Below are positions 32,968-41,626 of a DNA stretch of 64,000 nucleotides, piece by piece; the first letter of the stretch is position 1, and each line of letters starts with the position of its first letter. The translations under genes were made by a program, and so were the position numbers. Location: NCBI GenBank assembly GCA_035624615.1, contig DASPRE010000054.1:9584-73583 (forward strand). Direction: 5' to 3'. The notes under the pieces are model-generated. The model saw only the letters and a list, made by a program, of their open reading frames with translations, searched no databases and was not told the origin of the DNA. Origin of the DNA: Burkholderiales bacterium. Its GTDB lineage: Bacteria > Pseudomonadota > Gammaproteobacteria > Burkholderiales > JAHFRG01.

Positions 32968-34485
32968 TCAGGTGTACAAAATAGCGACGGCCAGCATGGT
33001 GGCGAGCAATGCGGCGATAACCGACAACCATTTGTTTTGCTCTTTGTATTCAGTGCGCAACTGCTGCAGTTCCTGTTTCAGCGCCTGAATGCGGTCTTCG
33101 GTAAGCGCACGATGAATGAGGCGAGGCAGTTGTGGCAGCAGCGTGCCCCAGTAGGGCGCTTCCTGGCGAATGCGGCGCAACAGACCGCGCCAGCCCACTT
33201 GTTCGCTCATCCACCGCTCGAGGAAAGGCTTCGCGGTTTTCCATACGTCGAGGTTGGGATCAAGCTCGCGCCCGAGCCCTTCTATATTTAACAGGGTCTT
33301 TTGCAGTAGTACCAGCTGCGGTTGAATTTCCACGTTGAAGCGGCGCGCAGCCTGGAACAAATTTAACAGCAGCTTGCCAAAAGAAATATCCTTGAGCGGC
33401 CTGTCGAAAATCGGTTCGCATACGGCGCGAATGGCGGCCTCGAATTCGTCCACCCGTGTTTCCTTCGGAATCCAGCCCGATTCGATGTGTGCCTGCGCAA
33501 CCCGCTTGTAGTCGCGGCGGAAAAATGCGAGGAAATTCTGCGCAAGGTAATTCTTGTCAACATCGTCGAGCGTGCCCATGATTCCAAAATCGAGAGCAAC
33601 GTATTCCCCTTGCGGCGTGACAAAAATATTTCCCGGATGCATATCGGCATGAAAAAAGCCGTCTCGCAAAACTTGGGTGAAGAATATTTCAACGCCGGCG
33701 CGAGCCAGTTTTGGAATATTCACGCCCTGTTTCCGCAGTGCCTCGACCTGGCTGATTGGCGTACCCTGCATGCGCTGCATAACCATAACCTCGGTTGAGC
33801 AATAGTCCCAATACACTTCGGGAATCCGCAACAGCGGAGAATTTTCAAAATTGCGACGCAGTTGGCTGGCGTTGGCCGCTTCGTGCATAAGGTCCAATTC
33901 ATGGTACAGATGTTTCTCAAATTCTGCGACCACTTCATGCGGCTTCAGGCGCTTGCCTTCAGCCCACAGCGTTTCAATTAGCGACGCCCCGATATCCAGC
34001 AACGCCAAATCCTTGGCGATTACGGCAGCGATACCGGGGCGCAGAATTTTGACCGCGACCTCGGTGCCGTTCTCGAGCACCGCAAAGTGTACTTGCGCCA
34101 CGGACGCGCTTGCTACCGGTTGCGCGTCGAATTTCTGAAACACCAGGTCCAAGGGTTTGCCGTACACTCTCTCCAAGGTGGAAATCGCTTCCGCGGATGG
34201 GAAGGGAGGAACTTGGTCCTGGAGTTTCGCGAGCTCATCCGCGATATCCGCAGGAAGCAAGTCGCGACGCGTGGACAGCACCTGTCCAAATTTGACGAAG
34301 ATTGGCCCCAGTGCTTCCAGCGCCAGACGCAGCCGTTCGGCGCGCGGCTTTCTGAGAGTCCGCCAGAATAGCAAAACTCTGAGCAGCACGCGCAAAGTGC
34401 GCACGCGTTCGTGCCCGAGAAAAAACTCATCGAGGCCGAAGCGCAGACTGACGCCGATGATTTTGAGGAAGCGGAGTAACCGCAT
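32968..34485 (-). CDS. ubiB: Ubiquinone biosynthesis regulatory kinase-like protein UbiB (ABC1 family)
   Basis: 505 aa; [31 protein letters not shown] and two C-terminal TM segments. Confidence 0.92.
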
Positions 34486-34524: not shown

Positions 34525-35082
34525 TCAGCGGGAGATATTTTGCAGCCGCTTTTCCAGGCGCTCGACATCATCGCGTAGGGCATCGACTTCGGCGATGAAT
34601 TGTTTGACGTGCGTGGATTTGGCGATCAGTGGGCGTTCTTCAGTCCAGTATTCCGAAAAAGAGTGGCTAAAGCTGTCAAACGTTTGTCGGCCCCAAGTGC
34701 CGAAGCTTTTGACAGTGCTGACCATGCGCCGTGCAGCGATATCACCCAAGATATGGCTTAGATCTTCCTCCGCATCCCAGCCCAGGTTTTTCGCGACATA
34801 AGCGATTGCTCCGGCAAATTCGCTGTCTCCGCTGATTTCAACCTGTTTGTACGCGGCCTCGTCGTGCATTAGCAGACGCAACAGCAGCAGCGGGGTTAAG
34901 AAAAATTTCGCGTCAGGCGCCGAATCAGCGGTGGCAGTTGCCGCTTCGCCGCCGGAGGTAATGGTGAAGGACAAAGAAAACGGTGGGATTAGGAAACGAA
35001 CGGTCTTGCCGGCAAAGGGCTTAAGTCGTTCGCGCGACCAGGTTTCGCCACGCAACAGGTGATTCAGCGCCCCGTGCAGCAT
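34525..35082 (-). CDS. ubiJ: Ubiquinone biosynthesis accessory factor UbiJ (SCP2 domain)
   Basis: 185 aa; N-terminal SCP2-like region (NHLLRGETWSRERLKPFAGKTVRF). It sits directly upstream of ubiB. Confidence 0.75.
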   Translation of the reverse strand: MLHGALNHLLRGETWSRERLKPFAGKTVRFLIPPFSLSFTITSGGEAATATADSAPDAKFFLTPLLLLRLLMHDEAAYKQVEISGDSEFAGAIAYVAKNLGWDAEEDLSHILGDIAARRMVSTVKSFGTWGRQTFDSFSHSFSEYWTEERPLIAKSTHVKQFIAEVDALRDDVERLEKRLQNISR

Positions 35083-35091
35083 GTTTAGCAG

Positions 35092-35925
35092 TCAGCGAAC
35101 ATGATGGATGCCGGTAAGCAGCCAGACCGATTTGGGGTCGTTCAAAGATTTCTGCACGTTCCAGATTTCATAGAACGGCCGGGCTGGCGCGCTGGCCGCT
35201 TTACGGCTTAGCCCGCTGAAGCGCACGCTGGCATTGGCTATATTGCCGTCGATCGCGAGTTCCAACAATTCGGCATCCAGCGTGAGGATATCGGTTTTCT
35301 GCCGCTGGTCGCCGCGCGCTGCGATTTGTCTGCTCAAATCATGGAATGCTTGGAGTGTCGCGTAGTCGCGGATCACATCAAGATCCTTGGCATCAATTGC
35401 CGCTAGCAGGCGGGAAAAGCCTTCCTTGGCGTTGCGCAGGAAAGGGTCGATTTCGAAACCAATCGGATACGGTGTGGGCCGCGTGGTGCCGCCGAACATT
35501 CTGGCGGGCGGCGAGGGAGTAGTTTCAGCCCCCAGCGACGCGTACTGCATCGTTTCATTTATCGGCTTCTTGCGCATCACGCGGAATAGGAAGAACCCAG
35601 TGCTGAACAATAGCGCAAGCATCGCGAAGTCAGCAAAGCGAATTCGATCGAAAGCGGCTCCGGTTAATAGCGCTGCGACCAATCCGCCAGCCGTCAATCC
35701 TGAAAGGGGCCGGGTTTGCTCTGCTGGAGCAGGTATGGGCACGGGGGGCTGGATCGGACGAGGGGGAAGCGGAGTGGCGTGCTGCCTTGCCGGATTATGC
35801 CGTTTGCCGATGCTGTTCCCGTTGCCGAGGTGCTTGGTGGCGTGAGCGTCAAAACCAGCAAGTCCGAGACCTAACACGGCTAGGAACAGCAGCAGGGCCG
35901 ATTTATTTAAGGCGCTTTGACTCAT
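35092..35925 (-). CDS. Tim44-like domain-containing membrane protein
   Basis: Signal/TM segment, a Pro-rich linker, and a C-terminal Tim44-like domain (FLRNAKEGFSRLLAAIDAKDLDVIRDYATLQAF...WLLTGI). This is the usual position between ubiE and ubiJ in betaproteobacteria. Confidence 0.75.
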   Translation of the reverse strand: MSQSALNKSALLLFLAVLGLGLAGFDAHATKHLGNGNSIGKRHNPARQHATPLPPRPIQPPVPIPAPAEQTRPLSGLTAGGLVAALLTGAAFDRIRFADFAMLALLFSTGFFLFRVMRKKPINETMQYASLGAETTPSPPARMFGGTTRPTPYPIGFEIDPFLRNAKEGFSRLLAAIDAKDLDVIRDYATLQAFHDLSRQIAARGDQRQKTDILTLDAELLELAIDGNIANASVRFSGLSRKAASAPARPFYEIWNVQKSLNDPKSVWLLTGIHHVR

Positions 35926-35927
35926 AT

Positions 35928-37169
35928 TCAGGATTCTATCACTTGGAATTCGGGCCGAATATCGAATTGCAAATATCGTTGGGCTGATCTTACGAAAGAT
36001 TCAGCCTCCTGCGGGCTCTTGCCGCTCGCGAAAATGAAGCCGAGGTAACTCGCTCCTTCAGGGGGCGGGGTAACAATATGCCCGATTTCAGCGGTAATCT
36101 GGATATCGGTGATACCCGCCAATTTCACGGCAAGGTCAAGATTGTGCGCACCCTGGTATATCCCGCGGGTGGGAATGGGTATCATCATCACCGCTACAGA
36201 TTTTTCAGGACTAAACGCTGGCAATGGTTCGCCCAACGCTTGGCGCAAAATCAGTTCCTCGATGCTCATTCCCAGCCAGTGGCGCAGCACGCGGCCGCAC
36301 AAGCCACCGATTGAACGTGCCGCTATTTCCAGAAGCCAAATGCCCGAGCTGTTTACGCGCATCTCAGCATGCACTGGGCCGGCGGTGAGTCCCGCGATCC
36401 CGCAGGCGCACTGAACCGTGTGCCGTATTTGATCCTGCGTGTCTTGCGGAAGGCGGGAAGGAGCCACGTAAACTGTTTCCTCGAAGTAGGGCCCGTCCAG
36501 CGGATCAGGCTTGTCGAATAGCGCCAGGGTCTTGAGACGGCCGTTTTCCAATATGCCCTCAAGGGCGTATTCCATGCCCGGAATGAAGCTTTCAATAATT
36601 ATCCCTAGCGCTTTCGCATCGCGGTCGGCTTTATTCTGGATTGCGCGCACCCGGCTTACCGCCTGCAGGTATTGCAGCGGATCGTCGGCACGGATTACGC
36701 CCCGGCTTGCCGAGAGCCTTCTTGCTTTGACTACTACCGGGAAATGCAGCCTGGGAATCAGGGCAGCGGAGTCTGTATTGTCCTGCAAATGGTGAAATTC
36801 AGGACAGTTGTATCCATTTGAGCTCAGCAGCTTGCGGAATTCCAGTTTGTCGCGCAGCGCTCGCACCGCCTCAGGTTTGTTTCCATTTAGCCCAAGGCGT
36901 TCATTGAGCAATGCGGCAAGCTCGAGGCCGTGATCATCCACTGCCAGTACGGCATCGACCCGGCGCGTGAGGGACTGCAAAATAATTTCACCTGCCTGTT
37001 CGGGCCTGTCGAATTGCACCGACATGATCGGAGCTAACCCCCATTGTGGCGCCAGTTGATGGCAGTAATCGGCTGCGCTGATGATCTCAACATTGAGCAC
37101 TTCGGCAGCCGCGAGGAAATCGTTGTTGCGGTAAGAAGTGGTGGGGAGAAGGAGGAGCATCTGCCTCAT
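35928..37169 (-). CDS. ATP-grasp domain-containing ligase (substrate unknown)
   Basis: About 413 aa with pre-ATP-grasp and ATP-grasp features (VVVKARRLSASRGVIRADD..., IIESFIPGMEYALEGI, LLEIAARSIGG). Start at ATG 37169, with alternatives at 37160 and 37202. The stop lies 2 nt before the Tim44-like ATG. Confidence 0.8.
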   Translation of the reverse strand: MRQMLLLLPTTSYRNNDFLAAAEVLNVEIISAADYCHQLAPQWGLAPIMSVQFDRPEQAGEIILQSLTRRVDAVLAVDDHGLELAALLNERLGLNGNKPEAVRALRDKLEFRKLLSSNGYNCPEFHHLQDNTDSAALIPRLHFPVVVKARRLSASRGVIRADDPLQYLQAVSRVRAIQNKADRDAKALGIIIESFIPGMEYALEGILENGRLKTLALFDKPDPLDGPYFEETVYVAPSRLPQDTQDQIRHTVQCACGIAGLTAGPVHAEMRVNSSGIWLLEIAARSIGGLCGRVLRHWLGMSIEELILRQALGEPLPAFSPEKSVAVMMIPIPTRGIYQGAHNLDLAVKLAGITDIQITAEIGHIVTPPPEGASYLGFIFASGKSPQEAESFVRSAQRYLQFDIRPEFQVIES

Positions 37170-37215
37170 TTTTCGAATCCCAAACTGCCGAGGCGCGAAC
37201 ACACCGGGCTAGGTG

Positions 37216-38661
37216 TTAAAAACTCTGCAGCTGCTGATGGGTTGGTTCGGCACAGCAATACCAAGGCTCCGATAGCCGGGGAATTGAAATTTGATTTTTT
37301 GATTCAGGCAAAGCGGAGGCCGGAATGCCCAGCGCGCTGTGCGCCATTTGCCAGATGCGTTCAAATATTTCGCCACGAGGCAACTTATTTGATTGTTCAA
37401 CCATCGATTGCGTCTCGTATTGCAAACGGTCTACCCGTGGGTCTCGATGCTGCCACGGATAACCCAGAAGAACCGGGTCGAAATCACCGATCAGATCGCG
37501 GAAACCCGGCAATTGCAGCAGATATGATCCTGCGGGGATCAACAGGCGAAGGGAGAGTTGCACCGGCGGCACACTCTCCACGAGATCAAGATCGGCGATG
37601 CGCCGCAACAGTTCGATATATCCTTCGAGAGTCGTCCACGGAGTGAATGCGACAAAAGTCGGGGCGAAAGCAATGCCGACATGGTGCATCAGCGCCACCA
37701 CGCGGTTGAAATCCTCGCTTGAGTGGTTTTTTGCCAAGTATTCCAGGACACGGTCATCTACTGATTCTACTGCCGAAGTGATGAACAGGCAGCCGGTGTT
37801 TTTCAGTTCCGGCAGCAGCCCCGCATTTTCGATAAGATGCTGCACTTTAATGGTGGCGTCATAAGTTACCCCGCGAAATTCACTGTGGAGAGCGCGCGCT
37901 ATTTTCAGGGCATGGGTTGGCCCGTTGAAGAAATCGGGGTCCCCGAAAGAAATGTGTTGCGCGCCCATCGCTATCTGCTGGCGGATATCGGCCAGCACTA
38001 CCTCCGCTGGCACAATGCGGAACCTGCCCTGATACACGGGCACCACGGGGCAATGGCGGCATAGATGCCTGCAGCCCCGGCTGGCTTCAGCAAAGCCAAC
38101 CAGTTTGGATTCCCCGTCCGGAAGCTCCAGCCGGGCGTACCTCTGTAAAACCGGAAGAACTGAACGCTCAGGCAATACGAAACTGATTTTTTTTAGATTG
38201 ACTACCGGCTCGACTTGTTTAGCGTAGACTCGCCCGTTTCTGAGGCGTTGTGCGAGGTTTAGCAGCCCCGGCTCAAATTCACCGCCCAGAACGGTTTGCA
38301 TTCCGAGGCTTTTAAAAAGCAGTTCATTCATGGGTGCATACAAGCCGTAGGCGCACAAATGCGCCTTGGGAGAAAGCTTTTTGATGCGTGGCAGTGCTTC
38401 AATCGCGATGCGCGTTCCGGTATGCATGCCAACGTAAATGGCAACCAGCGATGTTTGCTCCAGCTCCGCCGCGTCGAGTTTTTGCAATGACAGATCAATA
38501 CAGCCCACTTCAAATCCCGCGCGCTTCAGCCATGCTGCCGGCTCAGCCAGCGCGAAGGGTTGTCGCCCCAGCTCGTAAGGGTTGATCAGAACGACTTTGA
38601 ATTTAGCGGCTAAGCGGGATTGCAAGCCGTTGGCATCGATGGGAACAGGATCCACGGTCAA
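37216..38661 (-). CDS. B12-binding-domain radical SAM protein with a C-terminal CCAEP tail
   Basis: N-terminal Rossmann/B12-like region ([15 protein letters not shown]...), radical SAM cluster motif [11 protein letters not shown] (CxxxCxxC), and C-terminus ...[19 protein letters not shown]. The TTG start overlaps the ubiE TGA; an alternative GTG lies at 38655. Confidence 0.85.
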
Positions 38662-39398
38662 TACTTATAGCCGCGATGCAGCGCCACGACTCCGGCGCTG
38701 AGATTAAAATATTCAACGCGCTCGAATCCGGCCTGTTCCATCATCTGTTTCAGTTCCTCCTGCGCGGGATGCATACGGATGGATTCGGCAAGATAGCGGT
38801 AGCTGTCGGCATCGTTGACCACGAGCTTGCCCAGGGCCGGCAATAGCTTGAACGAATATGCATCGTAGAAGGGTTGCAGCGGTTCCCAGATTTTGGAAAA
38901 TTCCAGCACTAAAAGCCGTCCTCCGGGCCTCAACACGCGCAGCATTTCACGAAGCGCCAAATCCTTGTGCGTCATGTTCCTTAGACCAAAAGCAACGCTC
39001 ACGCAATCGAAGTAGTCGCTTGGGAATGGAAGTTTTTCCGCACTGCATTGTGCGGTCGGCAACGTGAGGCCATGATCGAGTAATCGGTCGCGGCCGAGCC
39101 TGAGCATGCTGTTGTTTATATCAGTGAACCATATTGTGCCGCTTTTGCCCACACGCTTGGCGAACAGCAGACTCATATCTGCAGTGCCGCCTGCGATATC
39201 CAGCACACGATCGCCGGTTTTAGTCGCGCTCAATTCGGCGGCAAAACGCTTCCACAGCCGATGCACGCCCAGCGACATCAGGTCATTCATTAAATCGTAG
39301 CGATTCGCCACCGAGTTGAAGACTCCCGCAACCCGAGAGGTTTTTTCCTCCTCAGTGACTTTTTGGAATCCAAAATCGGTAGATTTACTCATAACCAT
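38658..39398 (-). CDS. ubiE: Ubiquinone/menaquinone C-methyltransferase UbiE
   Basis: 246 aa; [43 protein letters not shown] and [11 protein letters not shown] are UbiE hallmarks. Confidence 0.93.
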
Positions 39399-39500: not shown

Positions 39501-39911
39501 TTATTTGGATTTAGGGCGCGACTCAAACGCGCCTGCGACGGGCTCGCGACTTGCCCCCGCGCTTTCCATGCGCTGCAAGTATTCCTGCCACATTCTTTCC
39601 TGGTTTTCCCCCAGCATGTACAGGTAATCCCACGAGTATATGCCAGTATCATGTCCATCGGAAAAACAGGGCTGCACTGCATAGCTGCCCACCGGTTCAA
39701 TTCCGGTAATCTCGATGTTTTTCTTACCGGCCTGCAATGTTTCCTGACCGGGTCCGTGGCCGCGTACTTCGGCGGAAGGGGAATATACGCGTAGGAATTC
39801 GTACGGAAGCTGGAAGTTTTTTCCGTCAGAAAATGAGATTTCCATTACCCGTGACTTTTGATGAAGCTTGATTTCAGTCGGGGTTGGAGTGTCTTTGCCG
39901 AGTCCTGCCAT
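39501..39911 (-). CDS. DUF971 (gamma-butyrobetaine hydroxylase-like N-terminal) domain protein
   Basis: 136 aa; FSDGKNFQLPYEFLRVYSPSAEVRGHG...FSDGHDTGIYSWDYL is characteristic of DUF971. This is the usual neighbour upstream of ubiE. Confidence 0.8.
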   Translation of the reverse strand: MAGLGKDTPTPTEIKLHQKSRVMEISFSDGKNFQLPYEFLRVYSPSAEVRGHGPGQETLQAGKKNIEITGIEPVGSYAVQPCFSDGHDTGIYSWDYLYMLGENQERMWQEYLQRMESAGASREPVAGAFESRPKSK

Positions 39912-40024: not shown

Positions 40025-41626
40025 TTAGGCGCTGCTGAAGTCGATGTGCTCATAGTCGCTGCCTTTTTCCATGAGCCGGGTGAGCTTCACGCGCTGCGGT
40101 TCGCTGGTAAATACTTCTATAACTCGTCCCGTCTGAAACCACCCACTGGGAAGAATCAGCGAAGGTTCAGTATTTTGGTCCGCCACGTCCGGCAGCAAAA
40201 AGGCCTGGACGTAGGGAGGAGGTAACCCCACACTGACTGGACGAACCGCAATTGGCTCCGGAACTCCCGGCAAGGCTCGAACGCCAATGTGCAGTTCGCC
40301 GTTCTGCTTGAGAGTCATCCATTGCACTACGCACAATAGAAATATCTTTCCGCCTGCCGGACAGGTTCCGATAAGTTGGTGAAGATTCAGTCGTGATCCG
40401 CCACCATCGGGCGCGCGCACCAAGCCGAAACCCTGGGGTCCCTCGTTTATGGTTTTCCATGTTTCCAGAGCAAAACCCATTTGGGAAGCCCGCAATTCTT
40501 CGCGTTGCTTGCTTAAGTGACCGAAGGTTGCCAGCTCTTCTTCCTCTTGACGCGAAAGTTGCGGAGCCCCGGGCTGCTTGAATGGTTTGCCGGTTATGTG
40601 ATAATAAATTGCAGGAATGCCAGTGCAAACCTGCATCACACTATCTGCCTGACGGCGCGGATTAACCGCCCCGCTGCCCGGCTTGCACCACTGCTGATAA
40701 AGCAGTTTGAGAAGAGCTTCACATCCGGGCTGCGTGCAGTCGGCGCCAAGTCCGAGGTCCGCGGGTGACTGGCCTTGCTCGAGGAGGACAATTCTTTTCA
40801 ACAGGTTTTTAGCAAGGTCGTCTACAATTAGGTAGCGGGTCGACTCTGGAGTACTTTCTTGCAACCGGGGCTTCACGCCTTGATTGCCCCCAACGTCTAC
40901 CGCAACTACAAATGCGCTGTCTGACCATTTCGTTATGATGCTGGTCTTATCGCCCCACTTTTCCAGCCAGCGCTTGGCGAGTTCCAGCTGCTTCGGAGTG
41001 AGCGAAAAGGGATTGCCAAGGCCGAGCAACAGCGCTTGAGCGTAATCTACAGCGCAACTTGTGGCCTTCGCATCCCGGCTAAGGTTGTCCTGCACCGGAG
41101 CTCCTGCAAGGCTGTGTTTCTCGGCGAATAGATACAATGCGTGTAGGTGTTGCCACAAATCGGGGAAAACTTCGTGATTGGTAAGGAAATGCTCCAAGAT
41201 GGATAGCGTCGTGTATCGAAGGCAGCGTTGGCATACGAGGGCTGCGTTTTTTCTGGCTTCTTCGCTGCCCTCGACCGCGTCCTGCAAGCAGCGCTGATAT
41301 GCCGCACGAAAGGTCTGCCAAAGTTCCACTACCTGCTTCCACTGCGCGGTCTCCGCCGCAGTAAGCGGCAGCGGTTTACCTACGTATTTCTTTGCGCAGT
41401 CGGTCTGTACCAATTCCACTGTTTCGCGCAATACTTCGAGCGTCCTAAGCCGCTCCACGGGATTCATGCGGAATTGCAGGAAACGCGTAAGTTCGGAAAT
41501 CAATTGCTGTTGTACTTGCGCCGAGTTGGTGAGCGGCAGTTGCTCAATCCAGCGTTTGCAGGAAGCGGCGTCACTCAACGCCGTGGCGGTTCCGGGTCGT
41601 GTGTCGGGAAGCGGCATGGGCAACAT
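40025..41626 (-). CDS. Hypothetical 533-aa cytoplasmic protein (no family recognised; possible PilZ-like C-terminal region)
   Basis: A long uninterrupted ORF with coding-like composition and no TM or signal sequence. KQREELR (RxxxR) is followed about 20 aa later by NEGPQGFGL, which is reminiscent of PilZ motifs. Confidence 0.65.
   Translation of the reverse strand: MLPMPLPDTRPGTATALSDAASCKRWIEQLPLTNSAQVQQQLISELTRFLQFRMNPVERLRTLEVLRETVELVQTDCAKKYVGKPLPLTAAETAQWKQVVELWQTFRAAYQRCLQDAVEGSEEARKNAALVCQRCLRYTTLSILEHFLTNHEVFPDLWQHLHALYLFAEKHSLAGAPVQDNLSRDAKATSCAVDYAQALLLGLGNPFSLTPKQLELAKRWLEKWGDKTSIITKWSDSAFVVAVDVGGNQGVKPRLQESTPESTRYLIVDDLAKNLLKRIVLLEQGQSPADLGLGADCTQPGCEALLKLLYQQWCKPGSGAVNPRRQADSVMQVCTGIPAIYYHITGKPFKQPGAPQLSRQEEEELATFGHLSKQREELRASQMGFALETWKTINEGPQGFGLVRAPDGGGSRLNLHQLIGTCPAGGKIFLLCVVQWMTLKQNGELHIGVRALPGVPEPIAVRPVSVGLPPPYVQAFLLPDVADQNTEPSLILPSGWFQTGRVIEVFTSEPQRVKLTRLMEKGSDYEHIDFSSA

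Follow-up and report, generated by a model that had tools for sequence, protein, structure and literature searches.

A CCAEP-tail radical SAM protein related to ArsL and its ATP-grasp partner within a ubiquinone operon of a Burkholderiales bacterium

The region considered here is a 64,000-nucleotide stretch of contig DASPRE010000054.1 from a Burkholderiales bacterium (assembly GCA_035624615.1), referred to below as the window. Within it, open reading frame (ORF) listing and translation place seven co-directional genes on the minus strand in the order DUF971, ubiE, radical S-adenosylmethionine (SAM) protein, ATP-grasp protein, Tim44-like, ubiJ, and ubiB, with identities assigned by Pfam and NCBIfam profile matches (Table 1). 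In canonical loci, the Tim44-like gene directly follows ubiE (e.g., L118, L136, L141, L144, and L156; compared loci are given by L numbers). An earlier note on this DNA had described the radical SAM gene (hereafter rSAM) and the ATP-grasp gene as two extra genes inserted between these two on the same strand, and had proposed that they perform an accessory step linked to quinone synthesis. The ORFs and profile matches agree with the described arrangement, and the comparison of homologous loci points away from the proposed function. We favor a reading in which the pair forms a self-contained, ancient two-gene module with no family-wide quinone link, and in which an alkyl transfer of the type catalyzed by ArsL would be followed by dipeptide ligation. 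Judged from sequence comparison, this reading has a probability of roughly 45%.

The genes of this locus are tightly packed, with gaps of -4, 46, 2, 9, and 39 nt from ubiE through ubiB. The earlier note had drawn attention to two of these junctions, and both are present: the ubiE TGA is shared with the TTG start of rSAM in the sequence TTGA (38658-38661), and the ATP-grasp TGA (35928-35930) is separated by 2 nt from the Tim44-like ATG at 35925. The tight junctions are also kept across the clade to which the window belongs. An alternative rSAM start, GTG, lies two codons further in. For the ATP-grasp gene, the true start is most likely the ATG at 37169 rather than the GTG at 37202 because homologues open with MKRVLLLLP and this ATG yields MRQMLLLLP; the gap to the rSAM stop given above follows this choice. 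Promoter-like and terminator-like sites inside the operon showed no excess over shuffled sequence, and an Rfam scan of the whole window found no element and no riboswitch. The gaps and the absence of promoter or terminator signals above chance are consistent with a single operon, and because the junctions stayed tight in the window's clade, the pair is probably transcribed together with the ubi genes in this lineage. The GC content at third codon positions (GC3) is 0.59 for rSAM and 0.61 for the ATP-grasp gene, compared with a window mean of 0.62 +/- 0.04. A recent horizontal insertion of the pair was rejected, given that these values are ordinary for the genome. With mreBC, gatAB, metH, gshAB, amtB/glnK, leuS, and a phosphoribulokinase gene, the window as a whole is unremarkable chromosomal DNA of an autotrophic betaproteobacterium.

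Table 1. Features of the rSAM/ATP-grasp locus, with positions counted from the first letter of the window.
Feature	Position	Strand	Evidence and remarks
DUF971 (GBBH-like_N)	39501-39911	-	PF06155 111 bits; first gene of the operon and usual upstream partner of rSAM in most Betaproteobacteria
ubiE, C-methyltransferase of ubiquinone/menaquinone synthesis	38658-39398	-	NF001240 409.9 bits (cut-off 378); PF01209 283 bits
CCAEP-tail radical SAM protein (rSAM), 481 aa	37216-38661	-	NF040546 599.6 bits (cut-off 500); PF04055
rSAM CxxxCxxC [4Fe-4S]/SAM motif, CRHLCRHC (C197, C201, C204)	38050-38073	-	Invariant in 116/116 family members and in PaArsL
rSAM CCAEP motif (C469, C470, A, E, P)	37243-37257	-	Kept in ~80 species loci; second Cys is selenocysteine in some lineages
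ATP-grasp protein, L-amino-acid-ligase type, 413 aa	35928-37169 (listed ORF to GTG 37202)	-	ATP-grasp_4 (PF13535) 94.2 bits; LAL_C2 (PF18603) 47.5 bits (cut-off 29.4)
Tim44-like membrane protein, ubi accessory operon	35092-35925	-	PF04280 51.9 bits
ubiJ (SCP2-domain ubiquinone accessory protein)	34525-35082	-	PF02036 27.3 bits; UbiJ NCBIfam model weak (32.8 bits); position conserved
ubiB (ABC1 atypical kinase)	32968-34485	-	NF003404 818 bits (cut-off 667)

The rSAM protein is a true member of NF040546, a family that was named by NCBI as the CUAEP/CCAEP-tail radical SAM (seleno)protein and flagged as uncharacterized by Haft. Residues 23-479 align with positions 1-467 of the 468 in the model, with a score above the family cut-off, and the protein does not differ from the family in any respect seen here; the match is full-length, and the cluster motif and the tail are both in place, as the earlier note had described. 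The literature searched contained no paper on the function, partners, or structure of NF040546. In the protein, a Rossmann-like domain at the N-terminus is followed by the radical SAM barrel and then by a flexible tail. An AlphaFold2 (AF2) model (predicted template modeling score, pTM, 0.84) is confident except for the first 17 and the last ~25 residues. The latter carry the CCAEP motif, and the low predicted local distance difference test (pLDDT) values there suggest that the tail is a mobile arm. The Rossmann-type domain ahead of the barrel is built of beta-alpha repeats (residues 22-141 of the model), and the top Foldseek matches are AprD4, TsrM, OxsB, and MgmA, all of which combine a Rossmann-like domain with a radical SAM barrel at only 15-21% identity to rSAM, followed by MiaB. 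The earlier note had taken the N-terminal domain to be B12-binding-like. The Pfam B12-binding profile PF02310 gave no match to the window rSAM at E <= 0.01 (two homologues carry a precomputed match), and according to a 2026 review, cobalamin is not bound by AprD4 or by homologues of ArsL. The "B12" label therefore probably reflects resemblance to the Rossmann-like fold only.

After its own family, the model that best fits rSAM in NCBIfam is that of ArsL (NF040542), which matches over nearly the full length; ArsL is also the closest characterized relative. It cleaves SAM to methylthioadenosine (MTA) and a 3-amino-3-carboxypropyl (ACP) species, thereby forming a carbon-arsenic bond. Activity depends on its C-terminal RCCLKC tail, three cysteines of which bind arsenite. 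The experimentally studied ArsL of Pseudomonas amygdali (PaArsL), which is encoded on a plasmid within the gene cluster arsQ-arsL-arsM-aquaporin-arsN1, shares 32% amino acid identity with rSAM over 405 aa (E = 8e-67). Among the 116 columns conserved at >=97% in the CCAEP family, 63 are identical in PaArsL. Both proteins start with a Rossmann-like domain, continue with a CxxxCxxC radical SAM barrel, and finish in a short tail rich in cysteines. They also have in common three invariant non-cluster cysteines. In the CCAEP family, there are exactly three such residues across 116 members, namely C291 in the barrel and C469 and C470 (Cys or selenocysteine) in the tail, which is the same number of thiols that ArsL uses for arsenite. 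The arrangement differs in that the arsenite-binding cysteines of ArsL are all in the tail, whereas the third cysteine of rSAM is in the barrel; C291 (codon at 37789-37791, minus strand) is Cys in 116/116 family members and Leu in PaArsL. The third cluster Cys is preceded by His in rSAM and by Tyr in ArsL, and the ArsL cluster includes the methyltransferase gene arsM, whereas rSAM is partnered by an amino-acid ligase. A PDB sequence search with rSAM returned no ArsL structure and only AprD4 (E = 8e-7).

The tail is the most distinctive feature of the family. Across 80 species-level loci, the motif SE[PN]WYC[C/U]AEPT is essentially invariant, in line with the conservation that the earlier note had anticipated. 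In five of these loci (L069, L071, L078, L079, and L080; one Caldilineales and four Acidobacteriota), an in-frame TGA replaces the second Cys codon and the reading frame is conserved past it, so that selenocysteine (Sec) forms, in which the earlier note had suggested looking for a selenocysteine insertion sequence (SECIS), do exist. A hairpin of 6-8 bp starts 14-17 nt past the UGA in 5/6 Sec-type sequences, with stems that vary between species while the pairing is kept. A consensus fold computed by RNAalifold from an ungapped alignment of the six Sec-type sequences was different and had no compensatory pairs; the hairpins of the individual sequences are register-shifted. A SECIS after the UGA is likely as judged from the individual folds only, since the alignment-based computation did not recover the hairpins. 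The extreme C-terminus, QQLQSF, is kept in Proteobacteria but not in the Sec-type loci that retain the ligase.

Several further observations concern the tail. In Thermomicrobium roseum DSM 5159 (TRD_RS12835; megaplasmid NC_011961.1; L161:8001-9482), the annotated coding sequence stops at ...ESWFC. Directly behind it stand a TGA codon and, in frame, AEP and ~20 further codons, with a hairpin after the UGA, and TRD_RS12835 therefore looks like an unrecognized selenoprotein that is truncated in RefSeq. Its neighbors include a major facilitator superfamily transporter, a large GNAT-annotated protein, and a pyridoxal phosphate-dependent aminotransferase. In a gammaproteobacterial clade (L044, L047, and L050-L068), the rSAM tail has a third cysteine. 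Finally, a conserved peptide T-x-Q/E-Q-L after CCAEP (37228-37242 in the window, minus strand) coincides with the position of the post-UGA hairpin in Sec-type genes and is encoded in the window by the partly self-complementary sequence CAGCAGCTGCAG; the conservation of this peptide may partly reflect an ancestral SECIS.

Replacement of Cys by Sec is typical of redox-active positions in selenoproteins. Flexible C-terminal arms with vicinal Cys-Cys or Cys-Sec pairs are found in MerA (CC) and thioredoxin reductase (GCUG), where they ferry a metal ion and reducing equivalents, respectively, to or from a buried active site. The likeness of the CCAEP/CUAEP tail to these arms is one of analogy only, as the folds and chemistries are unrelated. 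In one alternative to an ArsL-type transfer, rSAM would be a canonical 5'-deoxyadenosyl-radical enzyme acting on a free small molecule, with the Cys-Cys/Sec tail as a swinging redox arm (a selenenylsulfide or disulfide that delivers electrons or a hydrogen atom, as in thioredoxin reductase) rather than a substrate site, and with the ligase acting before or after it on the same metabolite. This alternative would fit the Sec/Cys exchange, the flexibility of the tail in the AF2 model, and a fold that is common to canonical 5'-deoxyadenosyl enzymes such as AprD4 and to MiaB; the invariant C291 in the barrel could be the redox partner, and the modest identity to ArsL and the His/Tyr difference next to the cluster leave space for it. 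However, ArsL is the sole characterized homologue with a Cys-rich C-terminal tail, and it binds the substrate atom there and cleaves SAM non-canonically. Moreover, over half of the family-invariant positions are common to ArsL, and Haft's survey ties CU motifs to heavy-atom chemistry. We therefore regard a redox arm on a canonical enzyme as unlikely.

The second gene of the pair encodes an ATP-grasp protein of the L-amino-acid-ligase (LAL) type, for which dipeptide synthesis is predicted. Its best PDB match is the L-amino acid ligase BL00235 (3VOT; E = 1.5e-35; residues 63-408), followed by BacD (~2e-6 to 4e-6), and the combination of ATP-grasp_4 and LAL_C2 domains is common to BL00235, BacD/YwfE, and DdaF. 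All curated NCBIfam LAL models score far below their cut-offs on this protein, which accordingly falls in an unnamed family, and in contrast to the L-amino acid ligases compared, it does not lie in an antibiotic cluster. Its AF2 model is poor (pLDDT 60, pTM 0.48), and the assignment relies on sequence matches to solved ligases. The products of BL00235 include Met-Gly and Met-Met, so it accepts methionine, an amino acid of the ACP-heteroatom kind, in the N-terminal position. The same order of reactions is familiar from pyrrolysine biosynthesis: PylB, a radical SAM enzyme, generates an uncommon amino acid, and the ATP-grasp enzyme PylC ligates this product to another amino acid. The correspondence is one of logic, as PylB is a canonical 5'-deoxyadenosyl lysine mutase that has neither a Rossmann domain nor a Cys tail, PylC resembles D-Ala-D-Ala ligase rather than the LAL type, pylD is missing from the window, and Pfam and NCBIfam detected no sequence relationship.

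To describe the genomic context, neighboring genes were counted within 10-kb flanks of rSAM in the 80 species-level loci, and patterns were derived by de novo clustering of adjoining ORFs. Of the 70 loci with enough sequence, 42 have an ATP-grasp gene downstream of rSAM in the same orientation, and these include distant Acidobacteriota and Gammaproteobacteria, which bears out the co-occurrence that the earlier note had proposed. DUF971 is upstream of rSAM in 37/77 loci and often overlaps its start, YggX (Fe2+ trafficking) is present in 30/80, and DUF169 in 8/80. The recurrent betaproteobacterial order is [YggX]-DUF971-rSAM-[DUF169]-ATP-grasp, where brackets mark genes that are not always present, and look-ups seeded on the ATP-grasp gene return DUF971-rSAM-ATP-grasp again. 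Even where the ligase is only 34-42% identical, as in the Acidobacteriota with Sec forms and two gammaproteobacterial loci, it is still paired with rSAM, and the persistence of the pairing with such divergent ligases suggests that the pair is ancient. By comparison, any ubi gene (ubiE, Tim44-like, ubiJ, or ubiB) occurs within 10 kb in only three of the 80 loci (L001, L033, and L039).

The recurrence of YggX and DUF971 raises the possibility that the module belongs to iron or Fe-S homeostasis. Mutant-fitness (cofitness) work assigns both proteins to Fe-S cluster maintenance and not to quinone synthesis. Together with them, the pair could make or repair a small molecule or cofactor that carries iron or sulfur, or rSAM could sacrifice a cluster as sulfur donor in the manner of LipA, BioB, or MiaB. 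The frequencies given above and the overlap of DUF971 with the rSAM start agree with such a role, as do the occurrence of YggX beside the pair in distant phyla (L073, L075, L079, and L080), the occasional recurrence of Nfu, IscU-like, and IscA/ErpA-like genes nearby, and the structural similarity of the rSAM model to MiaB. However, apart from the tail and C291, rSAM has no second conserved cysteine triad for an auxiliary cluster, and amino-acid ligases are not known to take part in Fe-S assembly. Support of maturation is a simpler explanation for helper genes beside an Fe-S enzyme, and a direct role in iron or Fe-S homeostasis appears quite unlikely.

The composition of the neighborhood varies among lineages. 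In the gammaproteobacterial clade mentioned above, rSAM has no adjoining ATP-grasp or DUF971 gene and lies among housekeeping genes, between RNase D and glycerol-metabolism genes and beside a ~300-aa alpha/beta-hydrolase-like protein without a family match. In L067 (Methylocapsa), L077 (an alphaproteobacterial metagenome-assembled genome), L070 (labeled Chromatiales), and L076 (Pseudomonadota), rSAM is preceded by a ~550-aa linalool dehydratase/isomerase (Ldi)-like protein (PF18566) and has an EthD-domain protein nearby, with no ATP-grasp and no DUF971, so that the enzyme may be put to another use in this group. DUF169 (PF02596, COG2043), which has conserved cysteines, follows rSAM in L005, L008, L026, L028, L061, L071, and L110, mostly between rSAM and the ligase, in several Betaproteobacteria and one Acidobacteriota Sec-type locus. 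A ~220-aa class I SAM-dependent methyltransferase gene adjoins the module after the ATP-grasp gene in L027, L046, and L048 and before rSAM in L041; in these four loci, of which L046 and L048 come from Polaromonas isolates, it could be a counterpart of ArsM. Two metagenome loci have lost rSAM between an intact DUF971 and an intact ATP-grasp gene. In L111 (7400-7620), a clean in-frame deletion joins residue ~42 to the last 7, and in L099 (4280-4440), the last ~25 codons remain, CCAEP included. These losses may be either real deletions or assembly artifacts. None of DUF169, the Ldi-like protein, the alpha/beta-hydrolase-like protein (c15), and the 533-aa ORF of the window (orf533) described below received an informative name from NCBIfam.

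The link to the ubi genes was traced through DUF971, the first gene of the operon. Among its 80 closest orthologues in metagenomes, the next gene is rSAM, without ubiE, in 56 loci and ubiE in 16. Nine of these 16 have the canonical DUF971-ubiE-Tim44-ubiJ order, or its start, without rSAM, and the other seven have the fused order of the window, six of them being its close relatives. A ubi gene is nearby in 7 of the 63 rSAM-containing loci in this set. The DUF971 copies of all three architectures intermingle, and identity between groups equals that within groups. The possibility that ubi-linked and rSAM-linked DUF971 are separate paralogues was rejected because nearest neighbors cross the groups and the identities are equal; as the architectures intermingle, DUF971 is one orthologous gene with a varying downstream neighbor. 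In the rSAM tree, the window's clade is monophyletic and nested among sequences without ubi neighbors, and L033 and L039 branch elsewhere. In the simplest history, a canonical DUF971-ubiE-Tim44-ubiJ-ubiB operon received the two-gene unit downstream of ubiE and upstream of the Tim44-like gene. Just upstream of DUF971 in the window is a 533-aa ORF (40025-41626, minus strand) without a Pfam or NCBIfam match. Its homologues precede DUF971 in ubi-type loci, sometimes as tandem duplicates (L033, L136, and L144), and rSAM-type loci have YggX in this place.

These patterns bear on the quinone proposal, according to which the pair contributes an undescribed accessory step to the making or modification of ubiquinone, or targets a Ubi metabolon protein, so that its operon position reflects its function. 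The overlapping and 2-nt junctions in the window's clade speak for it, as does the fused order in the distant L033, L039, and L115, possibly through independent events, and DUF971 is a neighbor of both ubiE and rSAM, in different genomes. However, the conserved co-localization with ubi genes that is expected of a Ubi system component is not seen in the rSAM-seeded loci, no quinone-related gene cluster recurs among the neighbors, canonical operons occur without the pair, and many carriers have a lone rSAM among unrelated housekeeping genes. Because DUF971 is a general Fe-S maintenance factor and not a Ubi protein, its shared upstream position gives no functional tie between ubiE and rSAM, and the ligase type and the homology to ArsL indicate amino-acid chemistry. 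The earlier note had stated in advance that homologue neighborhoods without ubi or quinone enrichment would speak against its proposal; no such enrichment was found, and a role in quinone metabolism is accordingly very unlikely. The placement of the pair in the ubi operon is lineage-specific, and the quinone link looks local rather than functional.

Radical SAM and ATP-grasp enzymes also occur together in pathways for ribosomally synthesized and post-translationally modified peptides (RiPPs), but maturation of such a peptide or modification of a protein, possibly of rSAM's own tail, is scarcely credible here despite the conserved QQLQSF terminus in Proteobacteria, given that there is neither a precursor ORF (as the earlier note had also observed) nor room for one (gaps of <=46 nt in the window and typically <120 nt elsewhere), that Pfam and NCBIfam detect no RiPP recognition element or peptide-binding domain in either protein, that the ATP-grasp protein is of the free-amino-acid ligase type, and that Sec-type loci with the ligase do not conserve the extreme C-terminus.

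The reading that we favor, an ancient module for alkyl transfer and dipeptide ligation, can be set out as a sequence of putative steps, with the chemistry of ACP transfer, the part played by the tail, and the ligase substrate inferred by homology. The [4Fe-4S] cluster of rSAM would cleave SAM reductively at the C-gamma-S bond, as in ArsL, and the aminocarboxypropyl group would be transferred to a soft atom X held by the flexible Cys-Cys or Cys-Sec tail, possibly with the help of C291 in the barrel. The product would be a methionine-like amino acid, 2-amino-4-X-butanoate, which the LAL-type ATP-grasp enzyme could join to a second amino acid to yield a dipeptide. DUF971 and YggX may keep the oxygen-sensitive or turnover-damaged Fe-S cluster of rSAM functional.

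A number of points weigh against this reading. The literature searched contained no biochemical data on any member of the CCAEP/CUAEP family. The score of rSAM on the ArsL model, 263 bits, is below the cut-off of 450, and an identity as low as that to PaArsL can permit other chemistry, including the canonical 5'-deoxyadenosyl type. The tails differ in sequence (CCAEP/CUAEP in rSAM versus RCCLKC in ArsL), and that of rSAM is ~45 residues further from the core. In addition, tblastn searches with the P. amygdali ars proteins found none in the window, and in 160 loci they found ArsM once and ArsN1 twice. Arsenite was considered as a substrate and is judged unlikely, since the window and nearly all of these loci lack ars genes; the neighborhood context in the window and the 160 loci points to no alternative substrate. 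Approximately 40% of the species loci have no adjoining ATP-grasp gene, and the gammaproteobacterial clade consists entirely of rSAM-only loci. Together with the two ATP-grasp loci that lost rSAM, this clade indicates that rSAM and the ligase are not strictly interdependent. Finally, the fused ubi order is found in at least two or three separate branches (the window's clade, L033, and L039/L115), and with this repeated occurrence, there is a slight chance that the association with the ubi operon was selected.

Taken together, rSAM belongs to a known family named by NCBI, and the set of partners (ATP-grasp ligase, DUF971, YggX, and DUF169) was not found in the literature searched. The module is best described as combining an ArsL-like enzyme that has a different tail with an amino-acid ligase and Fe-S maintenance partners. 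For annotation, the locus is a caution that the tight embedding of genes in an operon of one lineage can mislead on function when a neighbor such as DUF971 is general-purpose. It shifts the focus of further work from quinone profiling to the products of SAM cleavage, elements bound by the tail, and dipeptide metabolites, and rSAM is a possible concrete client enzyme for DUF971 and YggX.

To our knowledge, no radical SAM enzyme of canonical fold other than ArsL has been found to break SAM on the "wrong" side and to make a bond between carbon and a metalloid. The nearest relatives of ArsL are thousands of proteins without an assigned function, some of them selenoproteins, in bacteria of soil, groundwater, and sediment, and the genes that accompany this family are those for an amino-acid ligase and for Fe-S maintenance rather than quinone genes. 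A bolder version of the reading, which we consider possible but doubtful, is that these proteins form a sister family of ArsL that transfers the ACP group onto an atom borne by the Cys-Cys/Sec tail, so that a carbon-chalcogen or carbon-metalloid bond other than carbon-arsenic would be formed; the ligase would then make a previously unknown dipeptide, and DUF971 and YggX would be specific repair partners for a cluster that passes through an Fe-C intermediate. If true, nature would offer a second case in which a canonical radical SAM fold cleaves SAM non-canonically, and a new organo-element metabolite would be implied in aerobic chemolithoautotrophs.

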